Origin: Patescibacteria group bacterium | GTDB taxonomy: Bacteria; Patescibacteriota; Patescibacteriia; UBA1558; UBA10009 | DNA: 64,000 nt | Direction: 5' to 3' | Assembly (NCBI GenBank): GCA_041662565.1 | Contig: JBAZSE010000004.1 | Coordinates: 7,398 to 71,397, forward strand | In this document: piece by piece, positions 7,353 to 62,178 of the stretch | Numbering within the stretch: the stretch's first letter is position 1 | Layout of the letters: each line of letters starts with the position of its first letter | Notes under the pieces: generated by a model | Databases searched by the model: none | What the model was told of the DNA's origin: nothing | What the model saw: the letters and a program-made list of their open reading frames with translations, nothing else | Made by a program: the position numbers and the translations under genes

Positions 7353-8246
7353 TTATTTTTTTTCCAAAATAACAATCCAGTGCCAATTTAACTTTTTAAT
7401 TAAGGGCAGTTGAAGCAGAATTTCATCAATTAGCAAAAACAGCCATTCAATTATCAGAGGGATGCGAATCCTTTTTTTAAGTTTAAACAAACGGTATAAC
7501 GCTTCCAAACCATAATGCAAAAAACCTTGCAAAAGCCAAACTCTTTTAAATTTAATTACCGATAAAGGAAGAGCTGCGATTAACCGCTGCCAATCGCGCT
7601 TATCATAGCCAGGATGAGTTTCATCGGCCTCCGAATGACCATGATGGATGCGCAATCGAGCACTGTTTTTAAACAACTTGGTAAAACTCATCATAAAACG
7701 CGAAGGTTCCATGGCGCAAATAATCATACCGCCTGGTTTAACAACTCTAAACATTTCCTGCAAAGCGATATCCTGGCGCTCAAAATGATGCAGCGATGCC
7801 ACGATAAAAACCGCATTTACCGAATTATCAGGCAAGGGCAAATTTTGACCATCGGCTACCAAATAAATTACCTGTGAAGAATGTTGCGGATATTTTTCAT
7901 TGATTTTTTGTTTAATGCCCGAAATCGACTCCGGGCTGATATCGGAAACTATCAAATTATATCCCATTTTAAGCAAGGATAAAGAGTCATATCCGCTACC
8001 GGCACCAATTTCTAAAATAATCGAATTGTTGGAAAAACCGGAAAAATATTTTTTAAAATAATCGTGATAATAAGTATTGCGCAAAGAATTCAATTGGTGC
8101 ACTTCTTCTTCATCCTGATGAATGGCATTATGAAATAATATTTCTTGCTGTTGAAATTGGGTAACTTTGGGCAAATAAAAAAATAACCCGGCTTGATTAT
8201 CGCATTTAATTTTTAAATCTTGGTTTACTTTTTCAAATTCCTGCAT
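7353..8246 (-). CDS. Class I SAM-dependent methyltransferase
   Basis: Motif I ILEIGAGSGYDSLSL with an acidic post-I residue (VSDISPE). Confidence 0.65.
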   Translation of the reverse strand: MQEFEKVNQDLKIKCDNQAGLFFYLPKVTQFQQQEILFHNAIHQDEEEVHQLNSLRNTYYHDYFKKYFSGFSNNSIILEIGAGSGYDSLSLLKMGYNLIVSDISPESISGIKQKINEKYPQHSSQVIYLVADGQNLPLPDNSVNAVFIVASLHHFERQDIALQEMFRVVKPGGMIICAMEPSRFMMSFTKLFKNSARLRIHHGHSEADETHPGYDKRDWQRLIAALPLSVIKFKRVWLLQGFLHYGLEALYRLFKLKKRIRIPLIIEWLFLLIDEILLQLPLIKKLNWHWIVILEKK

Positions 8247-9418
8247 AAAGAAATTAATTTATCCAGATAATTTTCTAACGAAAAACTTTTTACATAATCA
8301 TAAGCTTTTTGCCCCATATCCGGCAAATTGTTTTTATCATGTAAAATCATTTTTAGTTGATCAACTAAATCAACTTCACTGTTACTTTTAAAAATCCAAC
8401 CGGTTTCGGGCTCTTTAACCAATTCTTGGCTGCCGCCAACGTCAGAAACTAAAACCGGGGTTTTTTGGCTATAGGCCTCAAGTATGACCATTGGTGAATT
8501 TTCCCACCACAATGAAGGCAAGACCAACAAATCAGCCAATTTAAACAAATCATCAAGCTGTTCCCTGGCAACCTGGCCGATCACGTTAATTTTGCCGTTA
8601 CTCTTATTTGCCAGCGATTTTATCAATTCAAACTGGGTACCGGTACCAGCGACGGTCAAATTTAACCTAGAATTATCTAATTTTAAAATTGTCTCAACTA
8701 AAAACTTAATGCCTTTATGGGGCTCTAGTTGCCCAAGATACAGCAGGCGCAAATTATTTTCTAAATCTTTATTTTGCGGCTTTTGATTGTTAAAGTTTTC
8801 TACAGGATTTGGCAATACAACGCACTGTGAATTTTTAAAAAAACCATATTCCAAATGTTTATTTAAAACAAATTGGGAAGGTGAAATAACTATATCCGGA
8901 TTACCTATGGCGAGCCGGGTAAAATACCTGTACACAACATAAAATATATTCTTAAGGAGCAAATTTTTGCCATAGCGATGCATGGAGCCGTGAGGATCAA
9001 GCAATTGATAATCGTGCAAAGTGTGAATGTGCTTTAAGCCAAGGGCTCTAATAACTTTAGGAATACCCAAGCTTAAGCCCTTAAGATTATGGGTAAAAAC
9101 AAAATCGGGCCGGTTTTTTTGCAGGAATTTTTTTACTTGATTCAAAACTTGCGAATTGAATAAATCATGCCAATGCCAAAAAAATTTTTGCAATAGATTT
9201 TTAGGTAAAGGGTCTGCCAAATAATAATTACCCCCTGGATTAATCCGGCAAATATTTATACCTTCGTAATCTTGGCAAGATAACGTTTCGGTTGGCTGTG
9301 TGGTAATAACAAAAACCTCGCCCTTTTTTTGCAATCCCTTGGCTAAAATTTCCACCACCCTTTCCGCCCCGCCCCGAGAGTAAGGAGGATATAAATTATT
9401 AATCAAGCAAAATTTCAT
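8225..9418 (-). CDS. Glycosyltransferase family 4 (GT-B)
   Basis: N-terminal YPPYSRGGAERVV and C-terminal E-x7-E region (LPSLWWENSPMVILEAYSQKTPVLVSDVGG). Confidence 0.7.
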   Translation of the reverse strand: MKFCLINNLYPPYSRGGAERVVEILAKGLQKKGEVFVITTQPTETLSCQDYEGINICRINPGGNYYLADPLPKNLLQKFFWHWHDLFNSQVLNQVKKFLQKNRPDFVFTHNLKGLSLGIPKVIRALGLKHIHTLHDYQLLDPHGSMHRYGKNLLLKNIFYVVYRYFTRLAIGNPDIVISPSQFVLNKHLEYGFFKNSQCVVLPNPVENFNNQKPQNKDLENNLRLLYLGQLEPHKGIKFLVETILKLDNSRLNLTVAGTGTQFELIKSLANKSNGKINVIGQVAREQLDDLFKLADLLVLPSLWWENSPMVILEAYSQKTPVLVSDVGGSQELVKEPETGWIFKSNSEVDLVDQLKMILHDKNNLPDMGQKAYDYVKSFSLENYLDKLISLCRNLKK

Positions 9419-10572
9419 GATTTATTATGGTAAATATCCAACAGATCACGGGTAATTATTTGCCAACTATAAGTTTCTTCCACGCGTTTTCTGCCTCGCG
9501 CGCCATATTCGATTGCCTGAGCGGGGTTATCCAAAAAAAACTTTAGCTGGGTTACCAGCTGACCCACATCTTTGGGTTTAAATAAGCGGCCGCTTTCATT
9601 AATGCCCACAACTTTTCTAACTCCGGGCAAATTAGCAGCCACTACCGGTTTGGCGCAAGCCATAGCTTCCAATAAAACCATACCAAAGGCCTCGCTTTGG
9701 TCAATTGAGGGCAACACAAAAATATCGGCTAAATGATAATGCCCGCTTAATGCGGAATCCGAAATATAACCTGTAAAAATAATTTTTTCGCTTAAGCCAT
9801 AAGATTCTGCCAAATCTTCGTAAATCGGCCGCAAATCGCCATCGCCGACAATAATTAGCTTAACATCCTCGCGGTTTAAAATTTCCAAGGCCTTAATTAA
9901 ATAATTTACTCCTTTAAAATAATGAGCCGAATCCAATCCACCAACGAATAAAATGACTTTTTTGCCACCCAAGCCGTACTTATCTGCCAATGTCTGATCG
10001 GCGGGTAAAGGCCTAAAGTTGTTAATATCAACCCCGTTAGGCATAATTTTGAATTTGCCGGGATATTTTAGATAAAATTGCTGGACCAATGATTGTTTTA
10101 AATAATCTTCCGAATTAACTATTACCGCATCTGCCCTTTTTATTAACTGGTGCAAAAATATCAAACTATAAAATTTAAAAAAATATGAATGCCAACCCCG
10201 GCCAACCAAATCCATGTGATAATGCAAAATTACCTTTAATTTTTTACCTTTTAGCAACTTGACGATTATTAATGGCAAAGCCGCTCCGATAAAAGGATAA
10301 TGAAAATGAACAATATCGAATTTCCAGACCCGCCAAAGCAGCTGCATAACAATGGCGCCATTACCATACTTGAATTGCGGATTAAGCTTGTGGATTTCAA
10401 AAAAACTGCTAATGTCACTTTCCATCCAGCTGTACCGCGGCGTTAAAACGGTAACTTGATATCCTAAACGGCTAAGATGATCCGAAATATTATAACAAAC
10501 ATTGCCAATGCCGCCTCGGTAAGGCGGAAAGGTACAAACAACTTGAGCGATTTTTGTTTTACCGTCGGGCAT
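9415..10572 (-). CDS. Glycosyltransferase family 4 (GT-B)
   Basis: GT4 motifs (FPPYRGGIGN, VLPSIDQSEAFGMVLLEAMACAKPVVA). The track start is TTG; the in-frame ATG at 10572 (MPDGKTK) is preferred. Confidence 0.7.
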   Translation of the reverse strand: MPDGKTKIAQVVCTFPPYRGGIGNVCYNISDHLSRLGYQVTVLTPRYSWMESDISSFFEIHKLNPQFKYGNGAIVMQLLWRVWKFDIVHFHYPFIGAALPLIIVKLLKGKKLKVILHYHMDLVGRGWHSYFFKFYSLIFLHQLIKRADAVIVNSEDYLKQSLVQQFYLKYPGKFKIMPNGVDINNFRPLPADQTLADKYGLGGKKVILFVGGLDSAHYFKGVNYLIKALEILNREDVKLIIVGDGDLRPIYEDLAESYGLSEKIIFTGYISDSALSGHYHLADIFVLPSIDQSEAFGMVLLEAMACAKPVVAANLPGVRKVVGINESGRLFKPKDVGQLVTQLKFFLDNPAQAIEYGARGRKRVEETYSWQIITRDLLDIYHNKS

Positions 10573-10574
10573 AA

Positions 10575-11666
10575 TTACCAAATAATCAATTTTTTAATAA
10601 CCAGCCAATAGGCGTTAAAAATCTTATTTATAACTTTTTCCATAAGCCAGCTATTTACTTCTTGATGCTCGATAACACCAGAAAAGTTTACCACTATTTC
10701 CCTATCTTTCACAATCCTACTAGATTGAATTTTCCGGCGGGTTTGGCATAATTTCTGCCAACTAGTGGGTTTTAAAAAATAGAGATAAATTTTTATTTTT
10801 TCCCGCCACCAGCCGTTTTTAAAAGAAAAAATAAACAACCCTATTTCCATTACTAACAGGGCTGGAAAAATTAACAACAAAGTTCTTAAATCATAATTGG
10901 CCAAAATAACCAGCCAACGATTTCTTTCCATAAAATAAAACTTTTTGATACTGCGACTAAATTCATACTTATGGTAAACAATGGCTTCCGGAACAACTTG
11001 ATTTTTATAACCTGATAGTAAAAATCGCCAGCCCAAATCCAAATCCTCGTGATACATAAAAAAACCCTCGTTAAACAAACCGATTTTGTTTAAAACCTCC
11101 AATTTAATTAAGCAGGCCGCGCCGGAACAGTAGTTTATTTCGTTTATCGTGTGTTGTCCAGCTGAGCTGGATCGTGTGTTGTCCAGCTGAGCTGGATCGT
11201 GTATCGTGTTTGGAGTTTTATGACCATTGGTGTAGCCAAAACCCAAATAATGGATCACGTTGCCAACACTGTTAATTAAATCCGTTAACGGCCATAATAA
11301 AATTTTTGACTGAACTGCAGCAATTTGATTCGATTGTTCAATCCTATTAACTAAAATATCCAAACAACCTACTTCCAGAAGCGCATCGCTATTAAGCAAA
11401 AAAACATAATCAAAATTATGGGCCTGGGCGTATTTAATGCCTAAATTATTACCTTTGGCAAAACCCCAATTGATCTCTTGTTCCAAAACAACTATCTGGG
11501 AAAAGTTTTCTCTAACATACTCAACTGATTCATCATGGGATGCGTTATCCACAAAAATAACTTGTTGGTTAACAGTTTGAGGCGGATTATTAAAAATACT
11601 CCCCAAAAGGCCAGGGAGGTATTTTTGACCGTTAAAATTAACAATAATGATGGCAACTTTCTTCAT
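10575..11666 (-). CDS. Glycosyltransferase family 2 (rhamnosyltransferase-like), carrying an internal 25-bp tandem duplication
   Basis: GT2 motifs VAIIIVNFNG, FVDNAS, LNSDAL, CSGAACLIK, YHEDLDLGWR. Confidence 0.7.
   Translation of the reverse strand: MKKVAIIIVNFNGQKYLPGLLGSIFNNPPQTVNQQVIFVDNASHDESVEYVRENFSQIVVLEQEINWGFAKGNNLGIKYAQAHNFDYVFLLNSDALLEVGCLDILVNRIEQSNQIAAVQSKILLWPLTDLINSVGNVIHYLGFGYTNGHKTPNTIHDPAQLDNTRSSSAGQHTINEINYCSGAACLIKLEVLNKIGLFNEGFFMYHEDLDLGWRFLLSGYKNQVVPEAIVYHKYEFSRSIKKFYFMERNRWLVILANYDLRTLLLIFPALLVMEIGLFIFSFKNGWWREKIKIYLYFLKPTSWQKLCQTRRKIQSSRIVKDREIVVNFSGVIEHQEVNSWLMEKVINKIFNAYWLVIKKLIIW
11146..11202. repeat. Perfect 25-bp tandem direct repeat (ATCGTGTGTTGTCCAGCTGAGCTGG x2) followed by a partial third unit (ATCGTGT), inside the GT2 coding sequence
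   Basis: Seen directly. The two copies are read in different frames (PAQLDNTR, then SSSAGQHT) and the ORF stays open. Confidence 0.85.
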
Positions 11667-11669
11667 GAT

Positions 11670-12020
11670 TCAATCTTTAAGATTATCTTTTTCATTATCA
11701 GTTAAAGCCAAATGCCTGATAATTTTGGTTATTTGGCGCTGTTGCCGATCGAGCTTTAAATAAAGACGGAAAATAAGGTAAAAAAGAATTAAAACCGCGC
11801 TGTAAATTGCCAAATCAACTCCCCTGCCAATACCAAACCAGCGGGCCAAATAAGAAGTTGTTTGAGGCAGCCAAAAAACCGTTAAGACAACAAGCCAGAT
11901 CATTAACCAACCCAAAAATTCCGATATTTTTAAAGTATTATCCTGAAACTTTTTAAATAGCCGAAAAACGACCAAGAGAACGAATAAACTAACAATGATT
12001 TGTAATGGCAAATAGATCAT
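11670..12020 (-). CDS. DUF2304-like small membrane protein, a frequent partner of GtrB/DPM1-type GT2 enzymes
   Basis: 116 aa, 3 TM helices plus a charged C-terminal tail, immediately downstream of a GT2. Confidence 0.45.
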   Translation of the reverse strand: MIYLPLQIIVSLFVLLVVFRLFKKFQDNTLKISEFLGWLMIWLVVLTVFWLPQTTSYLARWFGIGRGVDLAIYSAVLILFYLIFRLYLKLDRQQRQITKIIRHLALTDNEKDNLKD

Positions 12021-12021
12021 G

Positions 12022-12684
12022 TTATTTGTTAATTTTACTAAAAATTAAATCTTTAATAATTTTAAAACCTGATAAAAATCCTTGGCCGAATTCGTGGTAT
12101 TTAATGGTTACCGGAACTTCTTGATAAGTTAAATTATTGGCCTTAATTAATTCTATAATTTCGGTGGCATGAGCAAACTCATCTTGGGTAATTTTAATTT
12201 TTTCCAAAGCAACCCTTGATAATGCTCTAAAACCGTTATGGGCATCGGTTAATTTTACGCCTAATAATAAATTTTGAAATAAAATTGCCGGTTTTAAAAT
12301 AAACAATTTTTTAAGCCAGGGAATCGAGTTATTAGGCAGTAAAAACCTTGAACCCAAAACTACCTCAACTTTGCCATCAATAATCGGTCTTATTAATTTA
12401 GGGATTTCATCCGCCATGTGCTGGCCATCGGCATCAAAATGCACCACAATATCCGCTCCTTGTAAGTAAGCATACCTATCCCCCGTTTCCAGAGCTGCTC
12501 CCATGCCACGGTTAACTAAATGTTGTAAAACTTTAACACCCAAATTTTTAGCAATTATTGCGCTTTGATCAGCCGAACCATCGTCAACTACCACCACTGT
12601 GCCATAAGGCAAAACCGAGACAATAACTTTAGCCAATAATTTGGCTTCATTATAACAAGGTATAACAATAAAAACTTTATTCAT
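12022..12684 (-). CDS. Polyprenyl-phosphate glycosyltransferase, GT2 (GtrB/DPM1-like)
   Basis: VFIVIPCYNEAKLL...VVVDDGSADQS...DADGQH. The track start (12762) is TTG; the ATG at 12684 (MNKVFIV) sits 4 nt after the upstream ORF stop. Confidence 0.7.
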   Translation of the reverse strand: MNKVFIVIPCYNEAKLLAKVIVSVLPYGTVVVVDDGSADQSAIIAKNLGVKVLQHLVNRGMGAALETGDRYAYLQGADIVVHFDADGQHMADEIPKLIRPIIDGKVEVVLGSRFLLPNNSIPWLKKLFILKPAILFQNLLLGVKLTDAHNGFRALSRVALEKIKITQDEFAHATEIIELIKANNLTYQEVPVTIKYHEFGQGFLSGFKIIKDLIFSKINK

Positions 12685-13051
12685 GTTTTGCTGATTCTGA
12701 TTTAAATTTTTCGTACTCGCTGTTAATAAACTTTTCAATGGAATCCTCTCCCTCAAAATCAAATCTGGTTATTTTAATCTCATCAAAGGTGCTGCCAAAA
12801 ATATGGGATAAATAACAATGCGCAACTTGATCCATACCATATTTTGTATATAGTTTGCCCTTAATAAGAGCAGAACATCGTTCGTTAAAACTGAAGTCGT
12901 TCTGTGATAGATATTTACTTTCCATTGCAAAGTATTTATCATGCAGGTCAGTAAAAACTGCGCGCATTTCCGTGGTTATCTCCAATGGTAGTGCAATTTC
13001 TCTTTCCTGCAATGATGGGCCAGGAATAATAAAATCGTTTGGTTCTTGCAT
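12677..13051 (-). CDS. Hypothetical acidic protein
   Basis: 124-aa ORF with ATG start, co-directional with neighbours. No motif recognised. Confidence 0.3.
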   Translation of the reverse strand: MQEPNDFIIPGPSLQEREIALPLEITTEMRAVFTDLHDKYFAMESKYLSQNDFSFNERCSALIKGKLYTKYGMDQVAHCYLSHIFGSTFDEIKITRFDFEGEDSIEKFINSEYEKFKSESAKHE

Positions 13052-13064
13052 AATACTTTAATAA

Positions 13065-14351
13065 TTAACGGCCAATAGAATAGTACTTAAAACCTAGCCT
13101 TACAATATTGCTTTTATTTAATAAATTTCTGCCATCAAAAATAATCGGTTGCTTCATTGATTTTTTAACTTTTAGCCAATCAAGCTTGGCAAACTCGGGC
13201 CATTCGGTGGCGATTATTAATGCGTCTGCCTGTGTAAATACATCAATCGATGAATCGGCTAGCAAAACTCCTTTAAGTAAAACTTTTTTGGCATTAGCGG
13301 TGGCCTTAGGATCAAACGCCTTAACTTTTGCGCCCAAGGAAATTAAATTTTTAATCAATTTGATAGCCACCGATTCTCTAATATCATCAGTATTATTTTT
13401 GAAAGCCAAACCCAAAACACCAATTTTTTTGCCTTTTAAATTGCCCAAAACCTGTTTAATTTTATTTAAAAATAACTGGTGTTGATTGGCATTAACATCA
13501 AGCACGGCTTTAATAATTTTAGTATCGGCCCCGTGTTGTTCGGCCATATATTTAAGAGCTCTCACATCCTTAGGAAAACAACTTCCACCATAACCAATAC
13601 CTGCCTGCAAAAAATGAGGATTAATCCTGGCATCATAGCCCATACCTTTGGCCACTTCATCAACATTGGCCCCGACTTTTTCACATAAATTGGCAATTTC
13701 GTTGATAAAGGATATTTTAGCCGCTAAAAAGGCATTGGAGGCATATTTGATTAATTCGGCTGTTTCCCTATCCGTTAACATTTTATTGGTTTTGATTTTG
13801 GCAAAAGCCGACATTACCTTTAAACCGGCTGATTTATCAACTGCTCCCACAATTATTCTGTCCGGATTGAAAAAATCATAAATTGCCTTCCCTTCGCGCA
13901 AAAATTCGGAACAGGCCACTGCTTTAAATGATTTAATCTTGCCGCTGTTTAATAATTTTTCCAAAATTTTGCCATTACCAACAGGCACCGTGCTTTTGGT
14001 AACTACAATTTTACCGGTTTTACAATATTCTTTAATGCCTAATGCCGCTTGGTTTACATAAGTTAAATCCGCGCTACCATTGGGTTTAGCCGGTGTGCCC
14101 ACGCAAATAATAATCAAATCGGCGTTATTTACTACTTCGGCTAAATTAACGGTAAAAAACAATCGTTTGGCTTTAATATTTTTTTTCAGCATGGCCGTAA
14201 GGCCTGGTTCATAAAACGGTTCCTTACCTGCTTTAAGCGTAGCAATTTTAGCCGGATCGGTATCAACGCAAAAAACCCGGTGCCCAAGCTGGGCCAAGCC
14301 CACGCCGGTTACCAATCCTACATAACCTGTGCCGATAATCGTTATTTGCAT
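13065..14351 (-). CDS. ugd: UDP-glucose 6-dehydrogenase
   Basis: MQITIIGTGYVGLVTG N-terminal Rossmann, GGSCFPKD catalytic Cys motif, 428 aa. Confidence 0.8.
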   Translation of the reverse strand: MQITIIGTGYVGLVTGVGLAQLGHRVFCVDTDPAKIATLKAGKEPFYEPGLTAMLKKNIKAKRLFFTVNLAEVVNNADLIIICVGTPAKPNGSADLTYVNQAALGIKEYCKTGKIVVTKSTVPVGNGKILEKLLNSGKIKSFKAVACSEFLREGKAIYDFFNPDRIIVGAVDKSAGLKVMSAFAKIKTNKMLTDRETAELIKYASNAFLAAKISFINEIANLCEKVGANVDEVAKGMGYDARINPHFLQAGIGYGGSCFPKDVRALKYMAEQHGADTKIIKAVLDVNANQHQLFLNKIKQVLGNLKGKKIGVLGLAFKNNTDDIRESVAIKLIKNLISLGAKVKAFDPKATANAKKVLLKGVLLADSSIDVFTQADALIIATEWPEFAKLDWLKVKKSMKQPIIFDGRNLLNKSNIVRLGFKYYSIGR

Positions 14352-61448: not shown

Positions 61449-62178
61449 AACTTTTGCGGGCGAAAGCGGAAAAATTCAGGCCTTAACAGACATTAACCTT
61501 GATTTGCAAGAAGGTGAATTTGTTTGTTTGGTTGGGCCTTCGGGTTGCGGCAAATCAACACTTTTAAACATCATTGCCGGCCTAGCTCCAATTGATAGTG
61601 GAAAAATAGAATTTGCGGGCAAGCTTGGCTTTATGTTTCAGGAGCCAACCCTTTTTCCCTGGCTTAAAGTTAAAGATAACATTGCTTTTGGCTTGAAAAT
61701 CTTAAAAAAAAGCAAAGAAAAAATCAACGAAGTGGTTGATTATTTTTTGGAACTTACCCACTTGAGTAATTTTAAAGAGGCCTACCCGCACGAACTTTCC
61801 GGCGGCATGAAACAGCGCGTTGCTTTAGCCCGTACTCTGGCTTTAAAACCCGATATTTTACTAATGGACGAACCCTTTGCCGCGCTGGATGCCCAAACCA
61901 GGGAAATGCTTTACAAAGAGTTGCAGGAAATTTGGCAATTTTCCAAAAAAACCATTTTGTTTGTAACCCACAATGTGCGCGAAGCGGTAGTGCTGGGCGA
62001 TCGGGTATTGGTATTTACGGCCAGGCCCGGGCAAATTAAAAAAGAATTTAAAATAAATTTACCCCGCCCGCGAGATATTAACGATATTGAAGTAGCTAAA
62101 ATAAGCAACGCTATTAATCAGGAATTAAAAACCGAAGTGGCCAAAGTTGTTAATGAATTGGAACATTATGAAAAATAA
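61420..62178 (+). CDS. ABC transporter ATP-binding protein (SsuB/TauB-like)
   Basis: Walker A GPSGCGKST, signature LSGGMKQRVALAR, Walker B LLMDEPFAALD. Confidence 0.8.
   Translation: MKLQVKNINKTFAGESGKIQALTDINLDLQEGEFVCLVGPSGCGKSTLLNIIAGLAPIDSGKIEFAGKLGFMFQEPTLFPWLKVKDNIAFGLKILKKSKEKINEVVDYFLELTHLSNFKEAYPHELSGGMKQRVALARTLALKPDILLMDEPFAALDAQTREMLYKELQEIWQFSKKTILFVTHNVREAVVLGDRVLVFTARPGQIKKEFKINLPRPRDINDIEVAKISNAINQELKTEVAKVVNELEHYEK

Follow-up and report, generated by a model that had tools for sequence, protein, structure and literature searches.

A perfect 25-nucleotide tandem duplication in a Patescibacteria GT2 glycosyltransferase gene, probably the frame-restoring step in a slippage-prone loop

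In a 64,000-nt stretch of the genome assembly of a Patescibacteria group bacterium (contig JBAZSE010000004.1 of GCA_041662565.1; hereafter, the window), a gene for a GT2-family glycosyltransferase carries a 25-nt sequence twice, back to back and without a mismatch. Because 25 is not a multiple of three, such a locus raises the question of how the reading frame came to be preserved and whether changes in copy number turn the enzyme on and off. The initial annotation, made from the sequence of the window, saw in this repeat either a candidate phase-variable switch or an artefact of assembly. As described below, the duplication is genuine, and it probably represents the rescuing step in a slippage-derived, frame-compensated insertion into a disordered loop of the enzyme. 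The same loop carries heptanucleotide tracts in a number of orthologous glycosyltransferases, which bears on the question of switching in these bacteria.

Tandem Repeats Finder (TRF) describes positions 11146 to 11202 as 2.28 copies of ATCGTGTGTTGTCCAGCTGAGCTGG, with a period of 25, 100% identity, and a score of 114, whereas the runner-up tandem repeats of the window score 60 or less, making the 25-mer array outstanding. The 25-mer is present in the window exactly twice, at 11146 to 11170 and 11171 to 11195, and none of 100 dinucleotide shuffles produced two or more matches to it. The second copy is followed by ATCGTGT (11196 to 11202), the start of a third unit, then by another ATCGTGT (11203 to 11209) and TTGG. 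The G+C content is 56% in the unit, 37% in the window, and 35% in the gene. Thus, both the perfect duplication and its conspicuous composition in AT-rich DNA, as pointed out in the initial annotation, are real. The 25-mer is the sole conspicuous repeat in the 64 kb: the full list of other simple sequence repeats (SSRs) consists of (TCA)x4 at 1400 to 1411 and (TTTG)x3 at 61519 to 61530, and the window (1 to 64000) contains no homopolymers of at least 7 G/C or at least 9 A/T and no tRNA genes.

On the coding strand, the repeat is a composite with the structure CCAA-[ACACGAT][ACACGAT]-[CCAGCTCAGCTGGACAAC][ACACGAT]-[CCAGCTCAGCTGGACAAC][ACACGAT]-AAACGAA, in which each 25-mer consists of an 18-nt spacer and a heptamer. 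Direct-repeat analysis of the sequence delimits a 64-nt block (11146 to 11209, minus strand) made up of four copies of ACACGAT, two of them in tandem, and two copies of the spacer, which together encode residues N153 to I174. In the coding direction, the perfect tandem heptamer pair (11196 to 11209, minus strand; ATCGTGT twice on the plus strand) is read as (N)TIHD, the first copy of the 25-nt unit (11171 to 11195, minus strand) as (D)PAQLDNTR, and the second one (11146 to 11170, minus strand), in another frame, as SSSAGQHT; the boundaries of both copies come from TRF and exact matching. Directly downstream of the block lies a degenerate fifth heptamer, AAACGAA (11139 to 11145, minus strand; 5 matches out of 7), which joins with the last ACACGAT to make up the right arm of a direct repeat 13 nt in length (TCGTTTATCGTGT / TCGTGTATCGTGT, family D4) that has one mismatch and a spacing of 57 nt and brackets the block. 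The 18-mer holds an interrupted palindrome, CCAGCT-C-AGCTGG, and the palindromic cores CCAGCTGAGCTGG of the first and second 18-mers (11183 to 11195 and 11158 to 11170, respectively) can pair with each other as a 14-bp hairpin in single-stranded DNA, with a calculated free energy of -11.6 to -14.9 kcal/mol (z = -5.5 to -6.6 versus shuffles). An origin of the 18-mer from diverged heptamers was considered and rejected, the identity of 7/18 being at the chance level, and a search for Rfam-type RNA families found nothing meaningful in this region or in seven orthologue loci. Every component of the extra material has a non-triplet length, and together these components add up to 7 + 25 + 25 = 57 nt, which is exactly 19 codons.

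The open reading frame (ORF) runs through this block as ...GHKTPNTIHD-PAQLDNTR-SSSAGQHT-INEINYCSGAACLIK..., with LNSDAL upstream and CSGAAC downstream, so that, as had been claimed, the two copies are read in different frames while the ORF stays open. In simulations, the gene rebuilt with 0, 1, 3, 4, or 6 copies of the 25-mer encoded products of 170, 165, 195, 190, and 220 amino acids, respectively, and a full-length protein was obtained only with 2 or 5 copies. With a single copy, translation ends in ...DNTR-TAA, i.e., after residue 165, and the product is left without the half of the enzyme that contains the conserved CSGAAC and HEDLDLGW motifs; the gain of one copy yields the 195-residue product. 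The prediction that the gain or loss of one unit would break the frame is therefore correct. These results go beyond it in assigning a polarity: the present two-copy allele is ON and a single-copy one is OFF, and in the best reading the gene had already been frameshifted when the duplication rescued it.

The enzyme itself appears to be intact. The 363-amino-acid product of the gene (10575 to 11666, minus strand), which reads ...FLLNSDALLE...GFGYTNGHKTPNTIHDPAQLDNTRSSSAGQHTINEINYCSGAACLIK..., was assigned to the GT2 family based on the ORF list, Pfam and Foldseek matches, a structural model, and an alignment. It matches Pfam domain PF00535 (GT2) over residues 6 to 118 with 61.9 bits against a cutoff of 23.3 (E value of 9.4e-17), as well as PF13641 (3.1e-14). 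The AlphaFold 2 (AF2) model, built on an alignment (A1) of this protein with 25 homologues, has a mean predicted local distance difference test score (pLDDT) of 90.8 and a predicted template modeling score of 0.90 and shows a GT-A fold; Foldseek matches it to GalNAc-T and GlfT2 structures with E values of 1e-15 to 1e-13. At the sequence level, matches to PDB entries are confined to the N-terminal nucleotide-binding half. The model and the alignment together point to a protein with the GT-A fold, a DXD-type motif, and a conserved C-terminal half, and residues N92, D94, and H206-E207-D208, which are invariant across the homologues, are all present.

Within this protein, the repeat falls between two conserved motifs of the alignment, GFGYTxGHK (GFGYTNGHK in the window; 11217 to 11243, minus strand) and INYCSGAAC (11112 to 11138, minus strand), the latter of which goes out of frame in the simulations upon the loss or gain of one unit. 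The segment between them varies in both length and sequence in the 25 homologues. The loop from G144 to Y179 comprises 36 residues in the window protein, compared with 21 or 22 residues in 78 of 120 homologues and an overall range of 15 to 47, and the sole stretch of the AF2 model with a pLDDT below 50 (residues 162 to 172) lies inside the repeat-encoded peptide. Judging from the model, this peptide lies in a disordered, insertion-tolerant, hypervariable surface loop, in agreement with the earlier suggestion that the 19 residues encoded by the repeat might sit in a variable loop. Downstream of the repeat, every invariant residue is intact (Y179, G182 to A184, H206-E207-D208, and so on to W363), which indicates that the restored frame is under selection.

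How could such an allele have arisen? We infer that the block was produced by replication slippage between short direct repeats, the heptamers ACACGAT, inside the insertion-tolerant loop. Each visible step (+7, +25, and +25, or a hidden +5 or +2) is non-triplet, so that the frame must have been lost at one point or another, and the present allele would be the in-frame survivor, a compensated frameshift that has left 57 extra nucleotides and 19 extra codons. In the sequence of events that we consider probable, a small non-triplet slip broke the frame and a subsequent 25-nt duplication between heptamers restored it. Since the two 25-mers are identical, any small changes inside the unit must predate the duplication; with the lesion coming first, the duplication would be the frame-restoring (suppressor) step and not the lesion.

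Enumeration of all possible "un-duplication" paths of the block reveals no single-step in-frame ancestor that could be reached by removing a 25-mer while keeping the 18-mer. The two shortest paths each take two steps. One consists of a 5-nt duplication of CAGCT followed by the 25-nt duplication (30 nt in total), with the ancestral loop TPNTIHDPAGQHTINE and the palindrome core parsed as C-CAGCT-CAGCT-GG; the other starts with a 2-nt gain of AC within the ACACAC run, followed by the 25-nt duplication (27 nt in total). Removal of all 57 nt also retains the frame; the resulting loop has 17 residues, fewer than in 119 of the 120 homologues, and this path leaves the origin of the 18-mer unexplained. 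A distant orthologue, P0018, has IHDP...GGQ...TNE where the window protein has IHDP...AGQ...TINE, which is weak evidence in favor of the first (CAGCT) ancestor. The nearest orthologues share 66 to 68% identity with the window protein, and in the nearest syntenic ones (loci L002, L003, and L005) the loop DNA is too diverged to fix the ancestor. The locus could still toggle, aided by the 25-nt repeats and the two palindromes capable of pairing. Such a long-standing slippage-prone tract, turning a surface-glycan enzyme off and on over ecological or evolutionary time, would amount to a proto-contingency locus.

Comparison with the DNA of seven further long-loop orthologues shows that heptamers in this loop are not limited to the window. 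Five of these genes display the same grammar, each with a lineage-specific heptamer in perfect tandem copies and more copies of it across a GC-rich insert. In locus L008 (protein P0009), the unit is ACTCCCG, found 2.4 times to the left of the insert and again on the right, with an in-frame spacing of 66 nt. L010 (P0006) has AAGATAC in an imperfect pair on the left and 2.7 copies on the right, spaced 45 nt, and L011 (P0080) has ATTACCA in 2.3 copies on the left and 2.7 copies on the right, spaced 51 nt. The units ATTTCCA of L012 (P0098) and ATTACGG of L013 (P0107) are each present on both sides, with in-frame spacings of 72 and 90 nt, respectively. In all five genes, the in-frame spacing can be broken down into a non-triplet piece and 7 further nucleotides, with one heptamer copy read out of frame. 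Elsewhere in these five genes, such tracts are nearly absent, as they are in some 90 kb of additional sequence that was examined.

These tracts bear marks of turnover. L011, L012, and L013 share a common register and have units that differ by 1 or 2 bases; because each lineage variant flanks the insert on both sides, the tracts or inserts must have turned over since the respective proteins, which are 57 to 79% identical, split. When the insert is taken out of L010, AAGATAC is left in 4.7 copies that encode KIQDTRYKIQE, the exact loop of a short-loop relative, P0022. Some close relatives have wholly different loops, as do P0007 and P0015 (79% identity) and P0009 and P0010 (78%). The inserts of the long-loop orthologues (L007 to L013, as well as those encoding P0181, P0197, P0202, and P0207) are GC-rich stretches within AT-rich genes; they change from C-rich at the 5' end to G-rich at the 3' end, encode P..(S/A)R(R)GG, and usually have copies of the local heptamer on their flanks. 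A GC-rich hairpin as a general feature of these inserts was rejected: only those of the window (z = -5.5) and L009 (z = -3.5), and not the six others, fold better than dinucleotide shuffles.

The GT2 family has a second hot spot of 7- and 14-nt repeats, located in the loop that follows the DNAS.D motif (reference residues about 52 to 62; gene nucleotides about 154 to 186). It contains ACTAATT in 2.6 copies in L011 (458 to 476), AATTACG in 3.6 copies in L012 (461 to 487), and GAATCAAGAATCAT in 2.3 copies in L013 (261 to 293), and a protein-level signal at this position is also seen in P0123, P0137, and P0209; the window gene has no insert there. In L014, a 21-kb locus that encodes P0098, four of the five period-7 arrays fall within 1.9 kb (8683 to 10553) spanning two GT2 genes. 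One of them, a perfect (AAGTTTC)x4.29 at L014:9317-9346, lies inside the gene for a polyprenyl-phosphate GT2 similar to PpgS, where it is read as KVSSFKFQVS, and is identical in three contigs from different samples.

The same signal can be recovered from proteins. We drew up the complete list of 7-residue peptides that perfectly 7-nt-periodic DNA of at least three units can encode and scanned three non-overlapping sets of homologues for them. In the first set (n = 120), there were 11 matches in 7 proteins against 0.4 expected from shuffles, with 9 of the 11 in the repeat loop. The second set (n = 89) produced 12 matches in 4 proteins (0.35 expected), 7 of them in the repeat loop and 5 at the second loop, around residues 52 to 62. 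In the third set, which consisted of 146 representatives with 30 to 49% identity, 10 matches were found in 5 proteins (0.85 expected), all but one in the repeat loop. Control periods of 2, 4, 5, and 8 gave no matches in the first set; periods 4, 5, and 8 gave 2, 0, and 0 matches in the third set, both period-4 matches being located in a single multidomain protein outside the loop. In addition, exact peptide repeats of at least 3 residues are present in 16 of 120 loops, compared with 2.5 expected. The N-terminal sequence of P0118, MLHASCFM, can be encoded only by a perfect (ATGCTTC)n; it could be either a heptamer repeat at the ORF start or a miscalled start. A period of 7 is noteworthy because a neutral, frame-constrained loop should gather repeats with 3n periods; its persistence points either to selection for the ability to shift frame or to a mutational process whose inherent step is 7 nt. 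At the sequence level, then, the repeat loop looks like a heptanucleotide hot spot across Patescibacteria orthologues, with the window block as one instance of it, possibly a low-copy contingency tract.

Several observations weigh against a slippage-derived, still labile locus of this kind. The origin of the 18-mer spacer is unexplained, no further copy of it having turned up in the 64-kb window or in collections of viral, metagenome, and genome sequences. The order of events was deduced by parsimony, the nearest orthologue being uninformative at the DNA level. The simulated products of 0, 1, and 3 copies were absent from a collection of 15 billion proteins in an exact look-up, and a search with the N-terminal 157 residues found no near-identical N-terminal fragments, with the reservation that its sensitivity was low (30 candidates only); its two matches, with 59 to 69% identity, are both truncated by contig ends. 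An exact scan of metagenome and genome contigs with the left-flank 22-mer also gave no matches, a result in which even the source contig itself went unmatched. The gene for P0098, tracts included, has the same sequence in four contigs that come from different samples, which argues for short-term stability. A contingency system would be expected to comprise several such loci per genome, concentrated in genes for surface structures; the window has no further SSR locus of the contingency type, so that a genome-wide SSR strategy is unsupported. Finally, there is no direct evidence for slippage or switching in this population, whose reads were not seen.

Among the alternatives to a compensated frameshift, the one that survives best takes the heptamer/25-mer tract to be a bona fide contingency locus, maintained by selection because it turns one step in surface-glycan synthesis ON and OFF reversibly and at high frequency (translational phase variation). 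With it, an episymbiotic or ultrasmall bacterium would be able to vary its surface against recognition by phages, hosts, or predators. Several features speak for such a switch: the units are non-triplet, changes by one unit truncate the enzyme in simulations, and the gene sits within a surface-glycan cluster. Further support comes from the recurrence of heptamer tracts with lineage-specific units in the repeat loop and the second loop of diverged orthologues, where in-frame periods would be the neutral expectation, and from L014, with its array of more than four AAGTTTC units in the PpgS-like GT2 and the confinement of most of its period-7 arrays to two GT2 genes. There are also precedents. 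Heptanucleotide-repeat phase variation has been described for pglE, a pilin glycosyltransferase gene of Neisseria meningitidis (PMC7157529), and SSR contingency loci are found more generally in glycosyltransferase genes for lipooligosaccharide and lipopolysaccharide (PMC4235727, PMC2651432), where the general rule is one ON state per two OFF states (PMC4235727).

On closer comparison, however, the likeness to these loci is partial. What the window shares with them is a non-triplet tandem repeat in the ORF of a surface-glycan glycosyltransferase and, along with the orthologues, a 7-nt unit. In contrast, there are only two copies of the heptamer and the 25-mer in tandem, and 3 to 5 heptamers in orthologues, far below the hypermutable tracts; the tract lies in the middle of the gene, in a disordered loop; its unit is a composite of a heptamer and an 18-nt palindrome; and the candidate tract comes from an uncultured Patescibacteria bacterium and is known from identical alleles. 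The hypermutability threshold of at least 3 heptanucleotide units (PMC2651432), with usual numbers being much higher, is missed by the window, with its 2.28 25-mers and 2.0 tandem heptamers, and reached in some orthologues, which have 3 to 4.7 units; low-copy tracts belong to the lower-mutability classes of PMC4235727. Besides, no copy-number variants were seen, and the AAGATAC unit has been kept among proteins with about 70% identity, which suggests slow turnover. We therefore regard a selected contingency locus as possible and unlikely, and it is just as doubtful that the window repeat works as a true switch. Of the initial annotation's proposal, the frame-breaking capacity stands, and the phase-variable, high-frequency switch is so far unproven, given the two copies, the lack of 0-, 1-, or 3-copy alleles, and the lack of other SSRs of this kind in the window, and its indirect support comes from the heptamer tracts in the orthologue loops. 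The broader proposition that bacteria belonging to the Candidate Phyla Radiation (CPR) phase-vary a conserved envelope glycosyltransferase, and in some lineages also its PpgS-like neighbor, via an ancient heptamer tract that stays in the same loop and undergoes concerted evolution with lineage-specific units, the 25-nt duplication being a recent OFF-to-ON event, is tentative to a similar degree. We found no report in the literature of SSR phase variation in CPR/Patescibacteria.

Other known systems illuminate different aspects of the locus. For the pneumococcal capsule, reversible spontaneous tandem duplications have been described in the genes cap3A, cap8E/wchA, and tts (Waite et al., 2001 and 2003, as cited in PMC4243769, PMC11163986, and PMC4022640); as recounted there, the duplication is OFF and the single copy is ON (PMC11163986), and the switching frequency was measured. 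Like those, the window repeat is a perfect duplication of tens of bases in a polysaccharide-synthesis gene, its frame depends on copy number, and it would be expected to revert by losing one copy precisely; unlike those, its polarity is reversed, with two copies ON and one copy OFF. The window allele also resembles a classical compensated frameshift (intragenic suppression), in which at least two non-triplet indels sum to a multiple of three and a short stretch in the new frame (here, SSSAGQHT or QLDNTRSSSA) is tolerated by a dispensable loop. It differs in that the compensating 25-nt duplication contains the first lesion, which gives it the look of a clean tandem repeat, and in that the site is recurrent across orthologues. 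Within the CPR, a genome of Gracilibacteria contains a hypervariable gene with an in-frame 9-mer (PTD) repeat (PMC6851277). It, too, is a slippage-prone perfect repeat in a protein-coding gene and has been read as population-level diversification. However, the PTD repeat is long, in-frame, and varies the length of the protein, whereas the units in the window are few, non-triplet, and would switch the protein off.

Less probable is a fixed, neutral in-frame insertion of 57 nt, acquired in one complex event or through an invisible in-frame ancestor, in which case the non-triplet substructure would be incidental and the gene would have no on/off history. Such an insertion would agree with the total of exactly 19 codons, the 13-nt direct repeat with its 57-nt spacing, the disordered loop with its range of 15 to 47 residues, and the identity of the alleles in independent assemblies. 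Yet the 17-residue loop that remains without the 57 nt would be shorter than in all but one of the homologues, no mechanism gives 7 + 25 + 25 in a single step, and a heptamer-based non-triplet architecture recurs independently in other orthologues.

Still less probable is that the block is the footprint of a tiny mobile element or transposon that duplicates 7 bp of its target site and whose rounds of insertion and excision in this loop would leave behind heptamer arrays and remnants of terminal inverted repeats, the latter represented by CCAGCT...AGCTGG in the window and by the C-rich to G-rich inserts encoding P..RGG in orthologues. This model would account for the exact period of 7, the presence of heptamers on both sides of the GC-rich inserts, and the match of lineage-specific units to the local target sequence. 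However, neither the 18-mer nor similar inserts have other copies in the 64-kb window or the 21 kb of L014, the 25-mer has 0 exact matches in the viral, metagenome, and genome contig scans, and the orthologue inserts fold no better than shuffles; a dispersed mobile element was rejected, there being no other copy anywhere in the sequences scanned. We know of no transposase that yields such a pattern with elements of 18 to 70 nt. The presence of matched ACACGATA at both ends, 57 nt apart, also brought up programmed translational bypass of the T4 gene 60 or byp type. It was rejected because the ORF is continuous, without a stop, and the compensating repeats keep it in frame, so that the insert is translated.

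Finally, tandem repeats are classic sites of assembly errors and the source is a metagenome-assembled genome (MAG), but an assembly or sequencing artefact that added a spurious copy is barely credible, because such a copy would be expected to break the ORF, whereas it is the duplicated state that keeps open an otherwise fully conserved ORF and the removal of one copy that destroys it. The separately assembled contig k141_350510 (223,853 nt; European Nucleotide Archive analysis ERZ27249449) shows no difference from the window in any of the 7,092 nt that were compared, and the identical 363-amino-acid protein is encoded on two contigs, the longest of 367,922 nt, and in two NCBI MAG accessions (proteins MFA6304867.1 and MFA6459638.1). 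The window allele is thus the same in two assemblies and two MAG records. The 64-nt block is also shorter than both the reads and the k-mer length of 141, as inferred from the MEGAHIT-style name of the k141_350510 contig. The duplication is therefore genuine, and the artefact alternative of the initial annotation can be dropped.

The repeat-bearing gene is part of a conserved glycan-synthesis cluster (8225 to 14351, minus strand) that consists of genes for two GT4 glycosyltransferases, the repeat-bearing GT2, a DUF2304 protein, the polyprenyl-phosphate GT2 resembling PpgS, and a UDP-sugar dehydrogenase, with a small ORF between the last two. The orthologous loci L002, L003, and L005, from Komeilibacteria-like and other Patescibacteria, share this arrangement. 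In the window, a 124-amino-acid ORF of unknown function (12677 to 13051, minus strand) overlaps the 5' end of the ORF for the PpgS-like GT2 (12022 to 12762, minus strand), which is listed from a TTG start; in orthologous loci, a gene of 96 to 124 codons is followed by one for a GT2 of 220 to 238 residues. For the PpgS-like GT2, an internal ATG (MNKVFIVIP...) is the probable start. In L005, the intergenic DNA that separates the PpgS-like GT2 gene from the DUF2304 gene contains (at 1005 to 1085) a 9-nt direct repeat, GAGCGAGGG, that surrounds a 62-nt GC-rich stretch with CCCCGCTAAGCGGGG, which may be a terminator-like hairpin.

Taken by itself, the locus neatly illustrates how a tandem duplication can rescue a frameshift when it falls in a dispensable loop, and it offers a caution to annotators that a "clean" repeat in an intact gene can conceal a past in which the gene went off and came on again. 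More interesting is the wider pattern: in many uncultured Patescibacteria, an orthologous surface-glycan enzyme has a 7-base tract in this very loop, with a unit that differs from lineage to lineage. If these tracts vary in length within populations, ultrasmall and probably host-dependent bacteria would gain a means of repeat-based surface variation, and this would be, if true, the first time that a contingency system based on simple sequences has been described for the CPR.

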